Source: an uncultured Planctomycetales bacterium
Lineage (GTDB): Bacteria; Planctomycetota; Phycisphaerae; UBA1845; PWPN01
Reading direction: 5' to 3'
DNA: 64,000 bases
Assembly: GCA_964548565.1 (NCBI GenBank)
Contig: CAZJTF010000002.1
Location: forward strand, 3,573 to 67,572
A program made the position numbers and the translations under genes. Numbering within the stretch: the stretch's first letter is position 1; each line of letters starts with the position of its first letter. Shown one piece after another: positions 4,249-49,360 of this stretch. The notes under the pieces were generated by a model, which saw only the letters and a list, made by a program, of their open reading frames with translations, made no database searches and was not told the origin of the DNA.

Positions 4249-5064
4249 CTACGGCTCGATGAACTCCGGCCCATCCTGCTTGGCCGAGCGGGAACGCCCC
4301 GTGAGGAGCTTCAGAAGGGTGCGGCGGAGCAGCGTGAGCGGCCGGGAGAGCCGCCGGTGCAGCCGGATAGACCAGCCATGGCGATACGAGGCGGTAAACT
4401 CGTCCGCCGTGAGCGTATCCGGTCGATGGCGGCGCCGGTGCTTGAGCAGGTGGTACCGGTCGCCGTCCTGAAGCCTCCGAAGGATGAAATCACCGAGTTC
4501 CCGGGGAATCAGCCGCAGAAGCCCGTCTCGGCGCCCGCCCGGGCCCGGGTCCCACCGCCAGGAAATCTGGAAATCGATCAGGCTCGGCTGGCCATCGGCG
4601 TCTACGAGGATATTCTCCCGCTTCTCGAGATCGACGTACGCGATTCCTCGGTTGTGCAGCGCTTCAATGATGGCAGCCAACCGCGGGAAGAATGCGTCGT
4701 CCACCCACTCGTTGCGTTGGAGCGGATGACCTTCCACGAACGCGTGGGCAAAACCCGTCTCGCCCCACCGCCCCAGGCACTGCGGTACGCCCGGCAGATC
4801 CTGCACGGCTTCGTAGATCCGCCACTCGTGGTTCGCCAGGTACTTCCCCATCCAGCTCAGCGGGACCCCGAACAGCGGCGCCTGACGGCCGATCTTGAGG
4901 ATCACCCGCCCGGTCGGCCCTTCATACAGGCCCGTGGCTGCAAAGAAGTCGTGCTTGTACGTCCGGCGGTGCGCGTAATCGTGCCCGTTGAGGCGGATGC
5001 GCGACGGCATCTCCTCCCTTCCCAGGGCACGGAGCCACGAAAATCGGGGCGGCTTTTCGTTCAT
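4249..5064 (-). CDS. Protein-kinase-fold protein (Kdo/WaaP/RIO-like)
   Basis: The kinase catalytic loop and metal loop are visible: IAYVDLEKRENILVDADGQPSLIDFQIS (D-x-x-K-x-x-N then IDF). The track ORF extends to 5280 but would overlap the upstream peptidase gene. I prefer the start at MNEKPPRFSW (5064). Confidence 0.6.
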   Translation of the reverse strand: MNEKPPRFSWLRALGREEMPSRIRLNGHDYAHRRTYKHDFFAATGLYEGPTGRVILKIGRQAPLFGVPLSWMGKYLANHEWRIYEAVQDLPGVPQCLGRWGETGFAHAFVEGHPLQRNEWVDDAFFPRLAAIIEALHNRGIAYVDLEKRENILVDADGQPSLIDFQISWRWDPGPGGRRDGLLRLIPRELGDFILRRLQDGDRYHLLKHRRRHRPDTLTADEFTASYRHGWSIRLHRRLSRPLTLLRRTLLKLLTGRSRSAKQDGPEFIEP

Positions 5065-5176
5065 GCCGCGATGAAGGTACAGGAGCGTGCAGGGAAAATC
5101 ATCTGCGTGCGAAAGCTGCAGCGCGGGCGAAAGTCGCTCGGACGGATGAGGCGCGGCCGGCGTGCTGCGTAGATGA

Positions 5177-6989: not shown

Positions 6990-7307
6990 TCAGCGTCGAT
7001 CCAGCAGCTTGCCCAGCAGGATCCCGAAGCCGAAGGCCACAAGCAGGCTCGTGACCGGGCGCTGCTCAATCTGCTCGTGGACGTTTTCGACCGTCTGGCG
7101 GCTCTTCTTTCCGGCAACACTGAACGCGTCCCGAAGATCACCGGCCCACTTCTCCGCATTCTCCGAGAGACGCTCGCGCAGGTTCGTGGCGCCGCTGCGC
7201 CCGCTGGAGATCAGTGACTCCAGAATATCCGCAACGCTGTTCCGCAGCTTGCCGAGGTCATCGCGGAGATCCTGGACCTCATCCGACAGTTCGAATCGTC
7301 GCGCCAT
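6990..7307 (-). CDS. DUF883 / ElaB-YqjD family tail-anchored protein
   Basis: 105 aa. A coiled N-terminal part (DLRDDLGKLRNSVADILESL...) is followed by a C-terminal TM anchor EQRPVTSLLVAFGFGILLGKLL, characteristic of the ElaB/YqjD/YgaM family. Confidence 0.7.
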   Translation of the reverse strand: MARRFELSDEVQDLRDDLGKLRNSVADILESLISSGRSGATNLRERLSENAEKWAGDLRDAFSVAGKKSRQTVENVHEQIEQRPVTSLLVAFGFGILLGKLLDRR

Positions 7308-7467
7308 GTGAAAAACCTCCGATCAGCTTGGTTAACGTAGATCATATGAGGCACTTGGCGTTTTTCTATCGGGCCTCGGAATTCACTGCTGCCTCCTCAT
7401 TGGAGGACGATGGCGAGGCGGCCCCGCCCCGCGTCGGGCACGAGAAGTTTCGCCGCCGAGCTGCGAC

Positions 7468-7497
7468 TTGGCCTCGGCAAAGCACGCGGTCTATACT
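7468..7497 (+). promoter_or_regulatory. Candidate sigma70-type promoter for the CsrA-REC gene
   Basis: TTGGCC (7468-7473), an 18-nt spacer, then TATACT (7492-7497), about 60 nt upstream of the ATG at 7556. Confidence 0.3.
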
Positions 7498-7555
7498 GTT
7501 GATGTGTCACTCCTCGTCTGTGCCGTTGTCCAAACGGGTTTCAAGGTGGTAAAAA

Positions 7556-8155
7556 ATGCTCGTGATTTCCCGATGCCTGAACAGCGCGGTGCGGATCGGC
7601 GAAAACGTCACCATCAAAGTGCTGCGGATTGGACAAAAACGCGTGACCCTCGGCGTGGATGCACCGCCCGAGGTCACGGTGCGACGCGACGAGGTGGTGG
7701 ACGCGGTACGCCCCTCAAACGGCAGTGCGGAACTGCCCGGCCTCGACCTTCGCGTACTCGTGGTTGAGGATACGCCGGTGCACGCCCTCCTGATCGAGCG
7801 CGTCCTGAGCCGGCGCGGCGTCAAGAACATCGTTCGCACCTCCTGCGGCGAGGATGCCATTCGTCTTCTCACCCTCGCGCGGGAGAGCAAGGCCCTCAAG
7901 CCCGACCTGATCCTGTTGGACCTGCAGCTCCCCGGCGTCTCCGGCCTCCAGGTGCTCGAAACGGTCAAATCGCACCCGGCCCTGCGATCCATCCCGGTCG
8001 TCGTGCTGAGCTGCTCGGATTCCGATGAGGAAGTCGCGCGGTGCATGGCCGCCGGCGCCAACGCCTTCGTGTCCAAATCGGAAAGTTACGACAACCTGAG
8101 GCAGGCAATCCTTCGTATCACTGATTTCTGGAGCCAGGTGCGAAAGGTCGGCTGA
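7556..8155 (+). CDS. CsrA-like RNA-binding domain fused to a CheY-like receiver domain
   Basis: The N-terminus MLVISRCLNSAVRIGENVTIKVLRIGQKRVTLGVDAPPEVTVRRDEV aligns residue-for-residue with E. coli CsrA [47 protein letters not shown]. The remainder is a complete receiver: LRVLVVEDT, phospho-acceptor context DLILLDLQLPG, VVVLSCS, AFVSKS. SD-like AAGGTGG lies 8 nt upstream. Confidence 0.8.
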   Translation: MLVISRCLNSAVRIGENVTIKVLRIGQKRVTLGVDAPPEVTVRRDEVVDAVRPSNGSAELPGLDLRVLVVEDTPVHALLIERVLSRRGVKNIVRTSCGEDAIRLLTLARESKALKPDLILLDLQLPGVSGLQVLETVKSHPALRSIPVVVLSCSDSDEEVARCMAAGANAFVSKSESYDNLRQAILRITDFWSQVRKVG

Positions 8156-8193
8156 ATGCCCCTGCTGAATTCGGAAGGCAAGGCCGATTTGCC

Positions 8194-8222
8194 TTGACAT
8201 TCCGATCGCTTTCCTTTAATTA
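8194..8222 (+). promoter_or_regulatory. Candidate promoter for the GGA-rich leader and CBM48 gene
   Basis: A perfect -35 TTGACA (8194-8199) is followed by an AT-rich -10 region, TTTAAT (8215-8220) or TAATTA (8217-8222), giving a spacer of 15-17 nt. This is an isolated AT-rich patch in GC-rich DNA. Confidence 0.35.
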
Positions 8223-8380
8223 GAACGTGCTGCATTACGCGGCGCCAACTCGCACGAAGCGAACCTCGATCGCAATCTTCCGCCGCATGGCGCACGAGAC
8301 CGCCTCGGCCGGATGAGTGATAAAAACAATCTCAACGCAGGTGACGTGGCCGACAGCCACGCGAGAGGTGATTCCTTACG

Positions 8381-8577
8381 GGAGCGGGAAAGAGGCCCGG
8401 ACGGACCGGGTCCGCAGACCGAGCGGCAGGCTGTCGACCGCGGAGCACCCAGTCGAGGAGGAGGGGCGTGTACGGACGCAGGGGAACGGAGTCCGTGTGG
8501 TGAACACACGGAAGGCGGCATCCAGAGGACCAGCAGGGATGACAGCCATCACGGAGGTGCAGGATGGTCGCACGGGA
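8381..8577 (+). promoter_or_regulatory. GGA-dense 5' leader (candidate CsrA-binding RNA) ending on the SD and start codon of the CBM48 gene
   Basis: I count 17 GGA trinucleotides on the + strand in 197 nt, versus 3 TCC. Many sit in ACGGA or CACGGA contexts. AGCAGGGAUGA (8533-8543) and GCAGGAUGG (8558-8566) resemble the CsrA SELEX core ARGGAUG, and the latter includes the ATG at 8564. GGAGG at 8553-8557 is the SD. There is an 8-bp hairpin TCCGTGTG/CACACGGA at 8492-8512. Confidence 0.55.
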
Positions 8578-8866
8578 TCTTGAAGGCGAAGTCGAATTCC
8601 GGCTCCATAACCCTTCCGCACGACAGGTCTACCTCGTCGGAGACTTCAACGGATGGCAGGAGTGCAGCCTGCCCATGACGCGTCAGCAGAGCGGCGAATG
8701 GGTCTGCCGCCTCCACCTCCCCGAGGGCGTCTACCAGTACAAGTACCTCGTCGACGGAGAGTGGTGCCTCGACAGTGACCCGGTCGGCATCGGCTGGGCC
8801 CCCTTCGGGTGCAACTCGGTCATGGTGATGCACACCGGTGACGTGCCGGCGTTTCCCGTCGGTTGA
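8564..8866 (+). CDS. Stand-alone CBM48 / AMPK-beta-type glycogen-binding domain protein
   Basis: The 100-aa product EVEFRLHNPSARQVYLVGDFNGWQECSLPMTRQQSGEWVCRLHLPEGVYQYKYLVDGEWCLDSDP matches the AMPK beta GBD pattern (VYLSGSFNNW...LPEGEHQYKFFVDGQW..DP). Confidence 0.8.
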   Translation: MVARDLEGEVEFRLHNPSARQVYLVGDFNGWQECSLPMTRQQSGEWVCRLHLPEGVYQYKYLVDGEWCLDSDPVGIGWAPFGCNSVMVMHTGDVPAFPVG

Positions 8867-8975
8867 ACTTGACACCGGCCGCCGCGTTCGGTTTCCTTGT
8901 CCCACGGACGCGTCGCGCGGATCGGCCGAGGGCCGCGACACGCCCGGTCGATGCCTGAGTCACAGGGATTCAGCC

Positions 8976-9006
8976 GCCGCCCGCACCGCGCGGGCGGCTT
9001 TGTTTT
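8976..9006 (+). terminator. Rho-independent terminator after the CBM48 gene
   Basis: A 9-bp GC stem GCCGCCCGC (8976-8984) / GCGGGCGGC (8990-8998) with a 5-nt loop is followed by TTTGTTTTG. Confidence 0.7.
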
Positions 9007-9027
9007 GCCCTCGCCCGGAACCACGCC

Positions 9028-9519
9028 ATGCCAGCACATGTCGGTGTCATAATGGGTTCGCGATCGGACTGGGAGACGATGCAGCACTGCGCCGCCACCC
9101 TGGAGGCGCTGGGCATCGGGTTCGAGGCCCGTGTGCTCTCTGCACACCGCACGCCCGACGCGGCCCTGGAATATGCCGCCACCGCCGAGAGTCGCGGGCT
9201 GCACGTGATCATCGCGGCCGCGGGAGGCGCAGCCCATCTGGCTGGCGTGATGGCCGCCAAGACCGCCCTGCCCGTCCTCGGCGTCCCCATGCAGTCGCAG
9301 AGCCTGCAGGGGCTCGACTCGCTGCTCTCCATGGTGCAGATGCCCGCGGGAATCCCGGTGGGAACGCTCGCCATCGGCAAAGCCGGCGCGATCAACGCCG
9401 CCCTCTTCGCGGCCGCGATTCTCGCGCGCCACGACGCGAACGTCCGCACCGCCCTCGAGCGGTATCGGTCGGATCAGACCAAGAAGGTGCTGGCGAGTTC
9501 GGACCCGCGCCAGGGCTGA
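9028..9519 (+). CDS. purE: N5-carboxyaminoimidazole ribonucleotide mutase
   Basis: 163 aa. [16 protein letters not shown]...VLSAHRTPD...[29 protein letters not shown]...[19 protein letters not shown] is the canonical PurE sequence pattern. Confidence 0.92.
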
Positions 9520-9529
9520 CCGCGCCCTG

Positions 9530-10513
9530 TCAGAACACCCGGCTCAGTTCCCCGCGTGCGCCGTTGAGGACACGGTCCCAGTCGAACGCCGGCCCCGGGT
9601 CGATCTTGCCGCGCGTAATGTGCCAGTGGCCGAGGAGCCCTGACCAGGCGTTCAGCTCTTCCTCGGTCATGACGTCGGCACGCACCCGCCCGTCGGCGTC
9701 GCGCGGGACATCCAGTTTCATCCTCGGGAAGACGCGTGTCAGCGCGGCGCACAGCCGGATCATCGCCGTGTACTGTTCGGGCGTGAAATCGTACTGCACC
9801 AGGTCATGGCCGTTGATGCGCCCGCGCACCACCTCCGGCCGGGCCGGTCTGCCCACGAACCCCGGCGTGCGGATGCCCCCGTCCCCCATCCACGCCGGCA
9901 GCGTGATGCACGGCCAGGCGAACGCGTCGAGGCTGTACCACTCATTGAGCGTCCGCATGTCCGGGTACGCCCCGATGTGTGCAATCTCGACGCCGATCGA
10001 GCGATCGTTGGCCGTGCCTGCATGCCACGCCCGCTCCTTGAGGTCGAGCGTCTGGTACAGCGTGCCGTCAATGTCCAGCATGAACTGCACGGACAGCCCG
10101 CGAACATCGTGCAGGATCTTGAAGCACTGCTGGGAGGTGCCGCAGACGTCGTAGTGAATCACGAACTGGTCCACCGCCTGCTGCAGGTTGGGGAGAGTCC
10201 AGCCGTCCTTCGCGACCGCCTGCTCGAGTTCCGGCGAAAGCTTCTTACGGACGCCGTAGCGGTTCGGGTCGTCCTTCGACACCGGCGCTTTCGGCATGAT
10301 CTGGTCCGACTCGAAATGTCGCCGGCAGCGATACGCGTCATAGCCCCCGGGATCCGTCCAGAGCACGACCGGCGTCCCCGTATGGAAAAGCTGGCCGGCC
10401 GCGACGATCTCGTCCCCTTTCCGCTCCACGCGATCACCCGGACGCCCGCATCCGGTGCAGGCGATGACCGCGCCGCAGACAAGCACTCCCCACGCCTGAA
10501 AGCCGCTCCGCAT
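9530..10513 (-). CDS. N-acetylmuramoyl-L-alanine amidase (Amidase_2/PGRP fold), secreted or lipoprotein
   Basis: 327 aa. The signal plus Cys reads WGVLVCGAVIACTGC. The core FVIHYDVCGTSQQCFKILHDVRGLSVQFMLDIDGTLYQTLDLKERAWHAGTANDRSIGVEIAHIG is AmpD/PGRP-like. Confidence 0.75.
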   Translation of the reverse strand: MRSGFQAWGVLVCGAVIACTGCGRPGDRVERKGDEIVAAGQLFHTGTPVVLWTDPGGYDAYRCRRHFESDQIMPKAPVSKDDPNRYGVRKKLSPELEQAVAKDGWTLPNLQQAVDQFVIHYDVCGTSQQCFKILHDVRGLSVQFMLDIDGTLYQTLDLKERAWHAGTANDRSIGVEIAHIGAYPDMRTLNEWYSLDAFAWPCITLPAWMGDGGIRTPGFVGRPARPEVVRGRINGHDLVQYDFTPEQYTAMIRLCAALTRVFPRMKLDVPRDADGRVRADVMTEEELNAWSGLLGHWHITRGKIDPGPAFDWDRVLNGARGELSRVF

Positions 10514-46100: not shown

Positions 46101-49100
46101 ACATCATCGTGGCGGCCGGTGCGAACGGCGTGCTCGATACGACGCCGAACCCGAACGGCAACGACATGGTCAGCCTCGACGGCCTGAGCATCGTGGAGCC
46201 GCAGCGGGCGGCGGAGACGGCAGCGGGCGGCGACGACGTGCAGGTGGTCGCGGTGGGCGCGGTGCCGACGCCCGGCGAAGTGATCGTGACGAGCGGGCCC
46301 AACGGCGTGCTGGAGTCCACGCCGGCGGGCAACGACGTGATCACCGGGCCGGGCTACGCGTGCCAGAACGGCTGCCCCGGGGGCGCTTGCAAGCAGATTG
46401 AAGTCCTGACCAGCATGAAAGGGGTCGCCAATGACCCCGCGGCGGCGCGATTCTGGGTACTGATGACGGACGCCCCCATCGACCGCGGGGCGGATCTCGA
46501 CGACATCGTGCTGACGGCGGGCGAAACGTACACGCTCGCGTACGTGCAGGACAGGGACAACGACGGGCTGTTCGCGTGTGAAGAGTACCTGTACGGGAGT
46601 TCCGACCGGCGGATCAACACGGACGGCTGCCCCGACCCGCAGAATTCCACGAACTTCATCTGCAATCACCCCAGCTGCCAGGGATTCGACACGGACTGCC
46701 TCACCGATTTCCAGGAGGTCAAGGTCGGCTGGGAGGTGAGCGTGGAGGGGCGGCCGGGGTACAAGAGCTACGCGAGCCCGGCCTGGCCCGATACGGATGC
46801 GGACGGCATTCTCGATCACGACGAGCGGGTCTACGGCACCGACCCGATGAAGCGCGACACCGACGGCGACGGCATCCCGGACGGCGAGGAGATCAAGGGT
46901 TATGCCGTGCTGGGGAAGGATCGCAAGACGGTGCTGCGGTACATCGACGCGTACGAAACGCTGGTGATCGTCGACGGCGGGGATGGTGTGATCGACACGC
47001 CGCTGGCCGGTGACGACGTCCTCGCGAATCGCAACAAGTGCTCGGCGGCGGCCTCAAACGCGGAGGCGTCGTGCCTCACCGACGTGGACTGCCCCGGCGG
47101 GACTTGCGTCGCGGCCGGGCCGCCGCTGGTCGGGGCGATCGTCATCATCCCGGGCCCGAACGGCGTGCTGGAGAGCCTCCCCGCCGGGGACGACCGCACA
47201 GAGCTGAGCCAGGTGATTCTGGACGGCGGCAACGGCACAGTGGAAACCACGCCGGTGCCCGACGACGCATACTCGGCCGGCGCCGGCAGGACGCTGGTGA
47301 AGGTGAAATTCGCCAGCTACAACGCCGGTGCGGACGATTGTGACGCGGACAATGCCGTCGAGGGCGTCTGCAGCGATACGTCGAGCAATGCCAACGCGCG
47401 GTGCACGGTCGCCCAGCAGGCGACGCAATGCCCCCCGGTCCCTCCGACGTGCGATCTGAGCGCCCGCACCTGCTCGGGCGGCGGCAACAACGGTGCTCTC
47501 TGCACGTCGAGCGGCGACTGTCCCGGCGGCAGCTGCCTGGGGGTCTGCGTGAATGCAGCCATCGGGAATCCGTGCGCGGACGACTCAAGCTGCGCGCCGA
47601 TGGCGACGTCCTGCGAAATCCCTTCGAAGACATGCGTCGGCGGCATCAACACCGGCGACGAATGCACCGTGCCGGCGGACTGCCCCGGCGGCACCTGCGT
47701 CCAGCAGCCGAACCTGCTGCCGAGGGGCGAGTACAACATGGAATTCACCGTCACCAGGGACGGTGAGACGGTGCTCGAGGCGAGCTACCCGATGGTGTCC
47801 ATCAACGGCGGAGAAGGAACGGTGATACTCGGCGACACCGCGGAGTTCCAGCTCAGCGCGGGAGAAAGCTTCACCGTATCGGCCGTGTTTACCGAGGTCG
47901 ATCCGCCGGAGCAGGCATTCGAGGACGCGCTGCCGGGAAATGATCCGCCGGTGACGTGGAGCGTGACGCGGACGTTCGCGTTCAGCCAGCTCGCCAAGAA
48001 TTCGTCGCAGGACTACGAAGTCGACGGGCCGAACGGCGGGTGCCTGGAGGATGACACCTTCACGTACAACATCGCGGTCGGCGGCACCGTGAGGCCGGGC
48101 GGCGTGATGGTCGTGCCGGGGGCGAACGGGCGGCTCAATACCACGACGCCGGGCGGGGACGACTTCAAGGCCGTCCCCCACGCCGCCTTCTTCGCGACTG
48201 ACCCGCTCAACCGCGACACGGACGGCGACACGCTTCCGGACGGTCTCGAGCGGGCGCTGGGCGCCAATCCGAACGATCCGTCCGATGTCGGGCGGTTCCG
48301 GGATTCCGATCACGACGGGCTGACCGACGGGGAGGAGTCGGATGGTTGGTTCATCGGCTACCGGGACAACGGCGGTGCGATTCTCTGCCGGAACGGCGAC
48401 GGCGACTTCGTGGTCGTCCCCGACCCGGCGCGCCCGCCGGCGGCGTGCGTGATCGTCACGTCAGACCCGCTGGAGGCGGACACCGATCACGACCGGCTGC
48501 CGGACGCGCTCGAGATGGTGCTGCGGACGGATCCGCGCAGCCGCGACACGGACGGCGACAGTCTGTTGGATTACGACGAATTCGATTCCTCGTCGTCGTC
48601 GAGTATCGCGTACACCGATTTCCGGGATTTCGGCGAGATCTGCGGCGCGGCGGAACGTTGCTCGTACAACGGATCCGACTCGAAGAAATACGGGACGAGC
48701 CTGGCGAGGATGGATACGGACGGGGACGGGCTGTCTGACCCGGAGGAGGTGTTCGGCGGCTGGGTGGTCTCGCCGTGCGAGATGGTCCCGCGTTACGTGC
48801 AGAGCAACCCGCGGGAAGCGGACGCGGATCTGGACGGCTGGCTCGACGGGCGCGAGCAGTTGGAGGCCACGGACCCCAACTCGGCGGACACGGATGAAGA
48901 CATGACCCAGGCCGGCGGCGGAATCGACAGCAGCGATCCTTTCCCGTCCTCGTGCGGCAAGCTGCTGCTCGTCAGCATCGTCAGCTGGAACGTCGGCGGG
49001 GACGACTGCGATTCGGGCGTCAAGTACGAGGGCGACTTTACGTTTCACTTCGAGGTGCGCGTCGACGGCGACCTGATCACGCAGTGGAACAGCGGCGGCG

Positions 49101-49360
49101 AGGTCGAAATCGACGAAGGCGATTCGTACTCGTTCGGCCTGAAGACGGAGCAGTTCGCCATGACGCCGGGGCAGACGCTCACCGTCTCAGGGTATACGGA
49201 CGAGATTGACGTCAGCGCCATCGACGAGCCACCGACCTGGAGCTTCTCGAGGAGTTTCACGTATTCCGTCGTGACTAATGGCGACAATTCGTTCCAGACC
49301 GGTCCGGACTGCTTCTCGGATGACACGATCACCTTCCGCATCCAGGTGGTCGGCGGGTGA
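43184..49360 (+). CDS. Giant lipoprotein: SbsA-type Ig domains, TSP3-like Ca-binding repeats, PA/binary-toxin-B-like core, AAGDD repeats, Cys-rich DCPGGTC repeats, duplicated C-terminal beta-sandwich domain
   Basis: 2058 aa with lipobox LLLIPIASC. There are three ~100-aa domains of the type VLRAVALSNTSVQVTFSEEM / VLGAMAVTSTSVVVSFSEPL / IVAAISTGNTTVAVTFSRPM, and more than 15 DxDxDGxxDxxE repeats. See the findings for the PA-like segment at 44267-45600. Confidence 0.85.
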   Translation: MTRERLTRWSMAALLLIPIASCDVQNLPSLFPWTSKPAGAPTVLRAVALSNTSVQVTFSEEMEESCGGVGFYRITPGLAITAGARDEGGTTVTLTTGAQKDLPYTLEVGAMLSAAGQMLDPAKSGATFYGIATPDTAPPRVLGAMAVTSTSVVVSFSEPLDDSALNVSAYRITSASDGARLPVAGAALNATRTEVMLATSAQAGVEYALVVTNLADQAGNVIADANTASFAGIPAETVVQLPRIVAAISTGNTTVAVTFSRPMADTAAQGGNYAIVQKNVVSEAAGLIVTGAQFLRSDRTVVQLTTMSQSQVTYELTVAGVTDIEGNPMAPRQTGVGGIYDPSVATFAGTGATVGGETGLTDTDGDGLPDSVEQKGWVVVVVRDDGSSERSDVSSDPTVKDTDGDGLDDREERRGATDPRNPDTDADTISDSDEVNLYYSSPIHQDTDEDQLADHWELTLYRTSLIRSDTDGDGFKDAEEVSTMNRDPRIADLPRPRIDVGDTALRLDTRFTFTDKQGVTRSSQKSSSTELQESESRTLSFTDTQTTTNTVQIGTKVGGEHSWGLQGGDGVGGFSNKFTYEVSAGYTYTDEKTSTVNRQSTESSQQTYNDSLTTSESVDETQEVQRQVVGAQMSALVKIGNIGDTAFTMSQLEITAMQQDPENKERFLPVATLVPASQLTTGQIPSYTTGPFVPERGPFVFTSREVFPSLVEDLMRNPRGLLFKVANFNVTDEFGRNFAFVSQTVNDRTAGLTIDYGNGKVDRLRVATNGCIDERTGAYIGGFDERGRETGLPLGYVLQQMRGLPKNAPANAITVGDDGCAQSWAAGDDIQLVTPICPPVAPGGVIVTSGPNGRLESIPAGDDLRSGDSVIDGGDGCAHTVAAGDDMTVVQGACATGDSGLVVLAGPNGVLDSTPRGDDQRAEINGYGTSVVSRCDGNTIEVVVEPVNLHAQTRAAGDDVQVVAYGAPVLPGDIIVAAGANGVLDTTPNPNGNDMVSLDGLSIVEPQRAAETAAGGDDVQVVAVGAVPTPGEVIVTSGPNGVLESTPAGNDVITGPGYACQNGCPGGACKQIEVLTSMKGVANDPAAARFWVLMTDAPIDRGADLDDIVLTAGETYTLAYVQDRDNDGLFACEEYLYGSSDRRINTDGCPDPQNSTNFICNHPSCQGFDTDCLTDFQEVKVGWEVSVEGRPGYKSYASPAWPDTDADGILDHDERVYGTDPMKRDTDGDGIPDGEEIKGYAVLGKDRKTVLRYIDAYETLVIVDGGDGVIDTPLAGDDVLANRNKCSAAASNAEASCLTDVDCPGGTCVAAGPPLVGAIVIIPGPNGVLESLPAGDDRTELSQVILDGGNGTVETTPVPDDAYSAGAGRTLVKVKFASYNAGADDCDADNAVEGVCSDTSSNANARCTVAQQATQCPPVPPTCDLSARTCSGGGNNGALCTSSGDCPGGSCLGVCVNAAIGNPCADDSSCAPMATSCEIPSKTCVGGINTGDECTVPADCPGGTCVQQPNLLPRGEYNMEFTVTRDGETVLEASYPMVSINGGEGTVILGDTAEFQLSAGESFTVSAVFTEVDPPEQAFEDALPGNDPPVTWSVTRTFAFSQLAKNSSQDYEVDGPNGGCLEDDTFTYNIAVGGTVRPGGVMVVPGANGRLNTTTPGGDDFKAVPHAAFFATDPLNRDTDGDTLPDGLERALGANPNDPSDVGRFRDSDHDGLTDGEESDGWFIGYRDNGGAILCRNGDGDFVVVPDPARPPAACVIVTSDPLEADTDHDRLPDALEMVLRTDPRSRDTDGDSLLDYDEFDSSSSSSIAYTDFRDFGEICGAAERCSYNGSDSKKYGTSLARMDTDGDGLSDPEEVFGGWVVSPCEMVPRYVQSNPREADADLDGWLDGREQLEATDPNSADTDEDMTQAGGGIDSSDPFPSSCGKLLLVSIVSWNVGGDDCDSGVKYEGDFTFHFEVRVDGDLITQWNSGGEVEIDEGDSYSFGLKTEQFAMTPGQTLTVSGYTDEIDVSAIDEPPTWSFSRSFTYSVVTNGDNSFQTGPDCFSDDTITFRIQVVGG

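Follow-up and report, generated by a model that had tools for sequence, protein, structure and literature searches.

The locus described here lies in a window of 64 kb (the whole stretch of DNA that was analysed, 64,000 nucleotides), whose relatives are found in the Planctomycetota, among Planctomycetales and Phycisphaerae MAGs. On the + strand, positions 7556 to 8155 encode a fusion protein of 199 residues, CsrA-REC, made of an N-terminal CsrA domain and a C-terminal receiver domain similar to Rcp1 and CheY. The presence of a CsrA domain in this gene had been proposed in an earlier, sequence-only reading of the window, and it was confirmed by Pfam, which assigns CsrA to residues 1–51 (55.5 bits, the cut-off being 27) and Response_reg to residues 67–185. 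Residues 1–53 align gaplessly with the solved structures of E. coli CsrA and RsmE (1y00, 2jpp), B. subtilis CsrA can also be aligned without gaps to the CsrA part of the fusion, and among 57 aligned fusion proteins R6, R44 and E46 are conserved in 98%, 91% and 95%, respectively, as is the G-x-x-A-P core. R44A is the substitution that has been used experimentally to disable the RNA-binding surface of CsrA (PMC7652899). As judged from the alignment, CsrA-REC retains the conserved RNA-binding residues and may, with them, have a competence of the CsrA type. R7 is replaced, a linker and the receiver domain take the place of the C-terminal helix of CsrA, and the protein scores below the NCBIfam equivalog cut-offs for CsrA (TIGR00202 and PRK01712; 50.8 bits versus 70.1 and 73). 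Neither a second CsrA nor FliW was found within the 64-kb window.

The region upstream of csrA-REC differs among relatives. In the window, it is occupied by a gene for a YtxH-like protein of 105 residues, on the opposite strand. In nine related loci (L025, L107, L109–L111, L115, L116, L021 and L022), a single-domain receiver gene (142–148 residues) is found directly 5′ of csrA-REC, and further upstream a gene for a PAS/HisKA/HATPase kinase is present in L021 and L022, and L110 and L113 contain fragments of a kinase; neither the receiver gene nor the kinase gene exists in the window. Three sequencing runs (SRR12234145, SRR8750958 and ERR15459716) each hold a locus of the window type (L118–L120) and a second CsrA-REC locus (L021–L023), 83% identical and placed beside genes for a PAS histidine kinase and a REC protein, so that both are probably paralogues in one organism.

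Downstream of csrA-REC, and also on the + strand, positions 8564 to 8866 encode a stand-alone glycogen-binding module of the CBM48/AMPK-beta type (100 residues; AMPK1_CBM 54.8 bits and CBM_48 45.8 bits in Pfam), with a positional GC of 0.67/0.42/0.81, which is of the coding type. Its ATG at 8564 is the first in-frame start following a stop. The transcript is provided with a strong intrinsic terminator at 8976–9008 (+ strand), consisting of a 9-bp all-GC stem followed by TTTGTTTT, and purE lies beyond it.

The spacer between both genes contains a promoter on the + strand, formed by a −35 box TTGACA (8194–8199), a 17-nt spacer and a −10 box TAATTA (8217–8222), with a putative transcription start at about 8229. 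It was missed in a consensus promoter scan because the −10 box lacks the final T. The arrangement TTGA[CT]N / N16–18 / TAnnnn recurs, with an unchanged spacing to the twin hairpins described below, in 10 distinct related loci (L024, L108, L025, L107, L111, L115, L113, L124, L021 and L114), and this conservation supports the earlier suggestion that the TTGACA at 8194 starts the transcript; the leader of the CBM48 gene would therefore measure about 335 nt. Just after the csrA-REC stop, a hairpin is found at 8171–8205 on the + strand (GGAAGGCAAGGC-cgattt-GCCTTGACATTCC), which is paired in the MFE structure and whose 3′ arm contains the −35 TTGACA. This hairpin was not seen in the orthologues, and it may either terminate the transcription of csrA-REC or insulate the two units.

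The predicted transcript opens with a twin-hairpin module (8227–8267, + strand). Hairpin 1 (8227–8245) reads GUGCUGC-AUUAC-GCGGCGC, and its stem covaries among relatives (GCUGC/GCAGC, GUCGC/GCGAC, GACGC/GCGUC), while hairpin 2 (UCGCACGAAGCGA, 8250–8262) reads UCGC-ACGAA-GCGA here and UCGCA[AC]GANGCGA across relatives, its loop being A[AC]GAN or NGA in every homologue. None of the 41 positions of the module differs in strain L122. A covariance model of the twin hairpins (R1), built from nine sequences, scores 47.4 bits at 8227–8267 and at most 15.4 bits in the rest of the window, and it recovers L124, L001 and L113, which were absent from the training set, at 21–24 bits. Homologues of the module were located in L021 (2904–2949), L114 (106–147), L124 (2055–2098), L113 (3186–3231) and L001 (4597–4638), and it corresponds to no Rfam family. 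In L021 and, more weakly, in L114, promoter and hairpins stand upstream of csrA-REC itself, and the fact that one module heads both the CBM48 leader and a csrA-REC mRNA suggests a small co-regulated set.

The 3′ two-thirds of this 5′ UTR, and hence most of its length, are taken up by a GGA- and purine-rich segment, 8381–8577 on the + strand, which is non-coding. Open frames of 121 and 88 residues do exist in the spacer (8313–8678 and 8317–8583), and the earlier reading had named translation of the first as what would overturn its view of the segment as the leader of the next gene. However, their positional GC (0.71/0.61/0.59 and 0.62/0.60/0.70) departs from that of real genes (about 0.68/0.42/0.80), they have no Pfam match, and orthologous spacers contain no equivalent ORF. 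Moreover, the leader of strain L122 carries indels at about 8322 (−1), 8375 (+1) and 8503 (+1) that fragment both frames, in spite of which its CBM48 protein is 100% identical to that of the window. The possibility that either frame is a real gene is thus extremely small; on the grounds of positional GC, the L122 indels and the lack of Pfam matches, a coding reading is effectively refuted, and the description of the segment as a leader stands.

The segment had been singled out for a strand-specific accumulation of GGA motifs. The strand bias was verified, as the + strand carries 16 GGA against 3 for the − strand; the count originally given for the + strand, 17, was one too many. The motifs start at 8381, 8387, 8399, 8403, 8442, 8457, 8460, 8474, 8483, 8488, 8510, 8527, 8537, 8553, 8562 and 8575. 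Fifteen fall in the UTR, including that at 8562, which shares the A of the CBM48 ATG, and one (8575) lies within the coding sequence; between the putative transcription start and the ATG there are 16 GGA, ten of which are found in an A(N)GGA or AGGA context. The segment has the top count for a 197-nt window on either strand of the 64 kb, where the mean is 4.0 (sd 2.1). Peaks of at least 12 GGA occur three times elsewhere, all of them coding and corresponding to DTDGDG repeats of an ORF of 2058 residues. This ORF (43184–49360), with repeats like those of thrombospondin type 3, is GGA-dense at 44336–44609 and 48632–48914.

The enrichment was evaluated against shuffles, as the sequence-only reading had proposed, and against non-genic stretches of the window, and in both cases the segment proved enriched. 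Compared with roughly defined non-genic stretches of the window, it contains 8.1 GGA per 100 nt versus a mean of 1.9 (about 4-fold); the best 197-nt count in non-genic stretches elsewhere is 11, and the Poisson probability of 16 GGA at the non-genic rate is about 2e-6 per window. Dinucleotide shuffles of the segment gave 9.7 ± 2.05 GGA, with P(≥16) = 0.0024, a value somewhat flattered by the fact that the borders 8381–8577 were set post hoc on the GGAs. That shuffles already reach about 10 GGA reflects the extreme purine content of the segment (43% G, 23% A and 8% T), from which part of the excess follows. GGA is nonetheless its most frequent trinucleotide, at 1.65 times the first-order expectation, and GGG reaches only 0.58 times. 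Tandem-repeat and repeat searches revealed no repeat unit underlying the GGAs in the leader; they returned only a 19-nt imperfect direct repeat (8352/8541) and one long-range inverted repeat. Two other readings of the purine-rich stretch were dropped: a G-quadruplex, as the G-runs are too widely spaced, and a "standby" arrangement of multiple SD sequences, as just two GGAGG are present.

The elements that had been described around the translation start, namely the ATG at 8564, the GGAGG at 8553–8557, AGCAGGGAUGA and GCAGGAUGG, as well as the TTGACA at 8194, were all found in the sequence as described, and so were GGAs in consensus-like contexts over both the SD and the start codon. The GGA cluster of the initiation region (8527–8566, + strand) comprises GGA 8527, AGGGAUG at 8535–8541, UCACGGAGG at 8549–8557, which covers the SD and fully matches (A/U)CANGGANG, and GGAUG at 8562–8566, which spans the start codon; sites resembling ARGGAUG are thus found at 8535 and over the ATG. 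The start-to-start gaps between these GGAs are 10, 16 and 9 nt, and the pairs 8527–8553 (26 nt) and 8537–8562 (25 nt) lie within the range of 10–63 nt reported to be bridged by one CsrA dimer (PMC7652899). A search with the RsmE-type consensus [AT]CA.GGA.G yielded 14 matches on the whole + strand, two of them within the last 60 nt of the leader (8506 and 8549). The first of these corresponds to a candidate site, ACACGGAAG, at 8506–8514 on the + strand, also matching (A/U)CANGGANG, which lies on the 3′ side of a stable hairpin stem and is therefore occluded in the MFE structure.

The best structural match to a CsrA site is located further upstream, in a stable hairpin at 8394–8412 on the + strand (GGCCCGG-ACGGA-CCGGGUC, −12.9 kcal/mol), whose ACGGA pentaloop has a predicted unpaired probability of 0.99–1.0. 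The GGA of the SD is also predicted to be unpaired, and a weak hairpin could, according to the folding model, expose ACGGAGGUGCAG in a loop whose closing stem involves the start-codon region. Few of the GGAs are displayed in predicted hairpin loops: only 1 of the 16 lies wholly within a clean loop in the MFE structure, and about half (some 8 of 16) are mostly unpaired in the predicted ensemble. The fold of the whole leader is marginally better than that of shuffled sequences (z = −2.05) and that of the GGA segment is not (z = −0.7).

Comparison with relatives separates two components of this leader. The order csrA-REC, a spacer of 290–620 nt and CBM48 is syntenic in six distinct relatives (L024, L025, L107, L108, L111 and L115; L109 and L110 share the L111 spacer), whose fusion proteins are 76–81% identical to that of the window. 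Their spacers contain 3–9 GGA without strand bias. In L124, the CBM48 orthologue (72% identity) is not beside CsrA-REC, and the 5′ module is present and the pile-up absent. Distant stand-alone CBM48 genes have 0–9 GGA per 212 nt of leader and nothing similar; a metagenome scan for CBM48, used as a negative control, returned 80 loci, all with at most 47% identity, none of which adjoins CsrA or has a GGA-rich leader. The segment 8381–8577 is identical or nearly so in six contigs of the same species (L118–L123), which come from other samples and also encode an identical CBM48 protein, and nothing in L024 or L108 can be aligned to it. From these comparisons, the dense pile-up is confined to one species, represented by the window and L118–L123.

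The initiation region offers a different picture. The interval from −45 to +3 of eight CBM48 orthologues contains 1–4 GGA (mean 2.9), compared with a mean of 1.16 in 45 neighbouring genes taken as controls (Mann–Whitney p = 1.3e-4, or 4.7e-4 without the window); these p-values are optimistic, as the eight orthologues represent about five independent lineages. At least 3 GGA are present in three of the five lineages and in 2 of the 45 controls. Across relatives, it is the GGA cluster at the ribosome-binding site that is conserved, and not the upstream pile-up. Within the species, the middle of the leader (8268–8380, + strand) evolves fast, with a divergence of 8.8% and indels between the window and L122, and it is only weakly alignable to L115 and L111. 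Divergence amounts to 2.2% in the GGA segment and 1% in the CBM48 coding sequence; the former value is close to the synonymous rate and gives no sign of purifying selection on the segment. Variation among L118–L123 is slight, amounting to four changes, all outside GGAs, which is expected by chance in about 30% of cases.

Other genomes provided additional observations on CsrA-REC neighbourhoods. A genome scan identified only two true fusion loci, L001 and L002, both without CBM48 downstream. In L001, csrA-REC and a convergent gene are separated by tandemly repeated TTCTCAC/TTTCCCACC-like units (4940–5080), and the opposite strand of this array is rich in GGA and GGGAA. In L112 (3146–3350), a Gly/Tyr-rich, secreted-looking protein of 132 residues is encoded downstream of a CsrA-REC of 75% identity, and its leader contains GGAGGACUUA twice, one copy being the SD. 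Downstream of CsrA-REC, L111 (2040–2145), L115 (1715–1825), L113 (3455–3565) and L001 (4760–4865) share an invariant UCCGCGCCCGAAUCCC and, 3′ of it, a three-way hairpin in the shape of a Y (z −3.3 to −6.5); a U-run comes after the hairpin in the first three and is missing from L001. This Y-shaped module, absent from the window and without an Rfam match, may serve to terminate or attenuate a transcript of the sRNA type. In L124, the RNA led by the twin-hairpin module ends in a long hairpin and U6 (about 2140–2265), after which an extended −10 box, TGTTATAAT, is found at 2330–2345, which looks as though an sRNA gene and the CBM48 mRNA formed independent units in this locus.

These observations can be integrated in a model, the likeliest of those considered, in which the leader is a multi-site target of the CsrA type and the translation of CBM48 is repressed, most plausibly by the adjacent CsrA-REC; we put it forward tentatively, at slightly below an even likelihood. 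The ground for it is observed directly in the enrichment and the non-coding status of the segment, in the conservation of the promoter and 5′ module and in the synteny, to which the clustering of GGAs around the start codon of orthologues and the conserved RNA-binding residues are added. From this, we infer binding, repression and control by phosphorylation. Briefly, the leader would start at the 8194 promoter and open with the two conserved 5′ hairpins; CsrA dimers would bind the GGAs over the SD (UCACGGAGG) and the start codon (GGAUG) and bridge to nearby upstream GGAs, including that in the ACGGA hairpin loop, so that the ribosome would be blocked. Phosphorylation of the receiver would tune this repression, and the roughly ten further upstream GGAs may represent an elaboration of this species only, leading to higher avidity or to a buffering of the protein in cis. 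The model is favored by the two full (A/U)CANGGANG matches, one of them over the SD, by the ACGGA pentaloop and the predicted unpaired state of the SD GGA, and by the csrA-REC/CBM48 synteny together with the start-site GGA excess in orthologues. Against it stand the orthologous leaders, with 3–9 GGA and a pile-up not conserved beyond the species, the limited accessibility of the GGAs (about 8 of 16) in a segment that folds no better than shuffles, its divergence near the synonymous rate, and the score of the CsrA domain, below the equivalog cut-off.

The main rival explanation, which we consider unlikely although it weighs more than the other alternatives, is that the pile-up is a compositional by-product: the fast-evolving middle of the leader would have become purine-rich in this species, by drift or by replacement, and its many GGAs would not serve as dedicated binding sites; only the promoter, both 5′ hairpins and a strong but ordinary ribosome-binding site would be functional. 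This would explain why the pile-up is missing from every orthologue outside the species, and why the segment is without counterpart in L024 and L108 while L111 and L115 carry the Y-shaped hairpin module in its place; it also agrees with the hypervariability of the adjoining 8268–8380, the nearly neutral divergence of the segment itself, the 10 or so GGA that shuffles of the same composition produce, and the position of most GGAs outside hairpin loops. It does not easily account for a GGA content above the dinucleotide expectation while GGG is depleted, for two full CsrA/RsmE consensus matches within 60 nt, for the recurrence of the start-site GGA excess in orthologues, or for the CsrA-domain gene that adjoins in a conserved arrangement. 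A further alternative is a decoy role, the sequence-only reading having compared the motif density with that of sponge RNAs such as CsrB or RsmZ: the leader, or a 5′ fragment processed from it, would act mainly to titrate CsrA-REC in trans or in cis, the regulation of CBM48 being secondary. The GGA density of the segment (16 motifs, in a leader of about 335 nt) and the possession of its own conserved promoter would fit such a function, as would the homologous RNAs of L113 and L001, which adjoin CsrA-REC without any CBM48 gene, and the hairpin and U-run that follow the homologous RNA in L111, L115, L113 and L124, as in an independent sRNA. However, the analogy was not supported. No Rfam CsrB/Rsm family matches the leader: a search of Rfam gave no hit in 7000–9600 even at E ≤ 10, nothing relevant was obtained in the whole window at the gathering score, and a scan of nine related loci at E ≤ 1 was equally negative. 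A GacA/UvrY box (TGTAAGN6CTTACA-like, with up to 3 mismatches) is absent from the vicinity of 8194, which carries little weight, the box being a gammaproteobacterial trait. In the window, no terminator separates the leader RNA from CBM48 (no terminator-like site exists in 8229–8564, the first being at 8976), the homologous sRNA-like RNAs of relatives contain no more than 3–5 GGA each, and the GGAs of the segment are not arrayed in successive hairpin loops. The leader is thus not a CsrB-like sponge gene, and a mainly decoy function is judged quite improbable.

A broader interpretation, to which we give a low probability, somewhat above that of the decoy, holds that CsrA-REC and the promoter/twin-hairpin RNA may constitute a dedicated, phosphorylation-controlled post-transcriptional switch of Phycisphaerae-like planctomycetes, which here would have acquired a 16-GGA target and decoy. 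A single 5′ module would then head the CBM48 leader, the sRNA-like transcripts terminated by the Y-shaped hairpin and, in some lineages, the csrA-REC mRNA. If true, this would mean a new RNA family and the first function assigned to a response regulator of the CsrA type.

Returning to the model of a repressed target leader, known counterparts are not lacking. Repression by CsrA through the mRNA leader is known for P. fluorescens hcnA and B. subtilis hag, and glycogen is a classic theme of the Csr system. In E. coli, glgC (4 sites) and pgaA (6 sites) combine GGA sites overlapping the SD with upstream ones, bridged at 10–63 nt (PMC7652899). Like those of glgC, pgaA, hcnA and hag, the leader described here is long and contains several GGA or A(N)GGA sites. 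The SD and the start codon are each covered by one of these sites, another GGA further upstream is displayed in a hairpin loop, the spacings are compatible with dimer bridging (PMC7652899), and the gene that would be regulated concerns glycogen. In contrast, it has 16 GGA, a number far beyond that of known target leaders; its presumed regulator is a CsrA–receiver fusion instead of a free CsrA of 61 residues, and its host is a Phycisphaerae-like planctomycete. With the sponge sRNAs CsrB, CsrC and RsmX/Y/Z it shares a high GGA density on one strand and a promoter of its own, but it lacks a covariance-model match, its own terminator and a GacA/UvrY box, its GGAs are mostly not arranged in a series of hairpin loops, and the RNA runs into a coding gene. 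A further parallel is provided by the ANTAR proteins, which cause antitermination by way of a defined motif of two hairpins. These response regulators (AmiR, EutV) likewise join a receiver to an RNA-binding output and have a likely RNA target encoded beside the regulator; the output here is, unlike theirs, CsrA, and it is N-terminal to the receiver. Overall, the leader would best be filed as a putative target of the CsrA type, set apart by the uncommon nature of its regulator and by an unusually high number of sites, while the promoter/twin-hairpin and Y-shaped terminator modules are unannotated RNA elements.

Combinations of REC and CsrA are catalogued in response-regulator classifications (cited in PMC2222644), and a 2026 survey of CsrA diversity describes CsrA as common in Planctomycetota and does not treat receiver fusions (PMC13443453). 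Our literature search found no functional study of CsrA-REC proteins. Sponge RNAs and the protein FliW are the known means of controlling CsrA activity, and the fusion of a CsrA domain to a phosphoreceiver would represent a third way, directly coupling two-component signalling to translation. The locus offers a testable candidate target beside its regulator, in the form of an mRNA for a glycogen-binding protein with GGAs over the ribosome-binding site, and it exposes a conserved leader/sRNA module common to the regulator and its neighbour. If binding were confirmed, it would become a compact model for phosphorylation-gated RNA binding.
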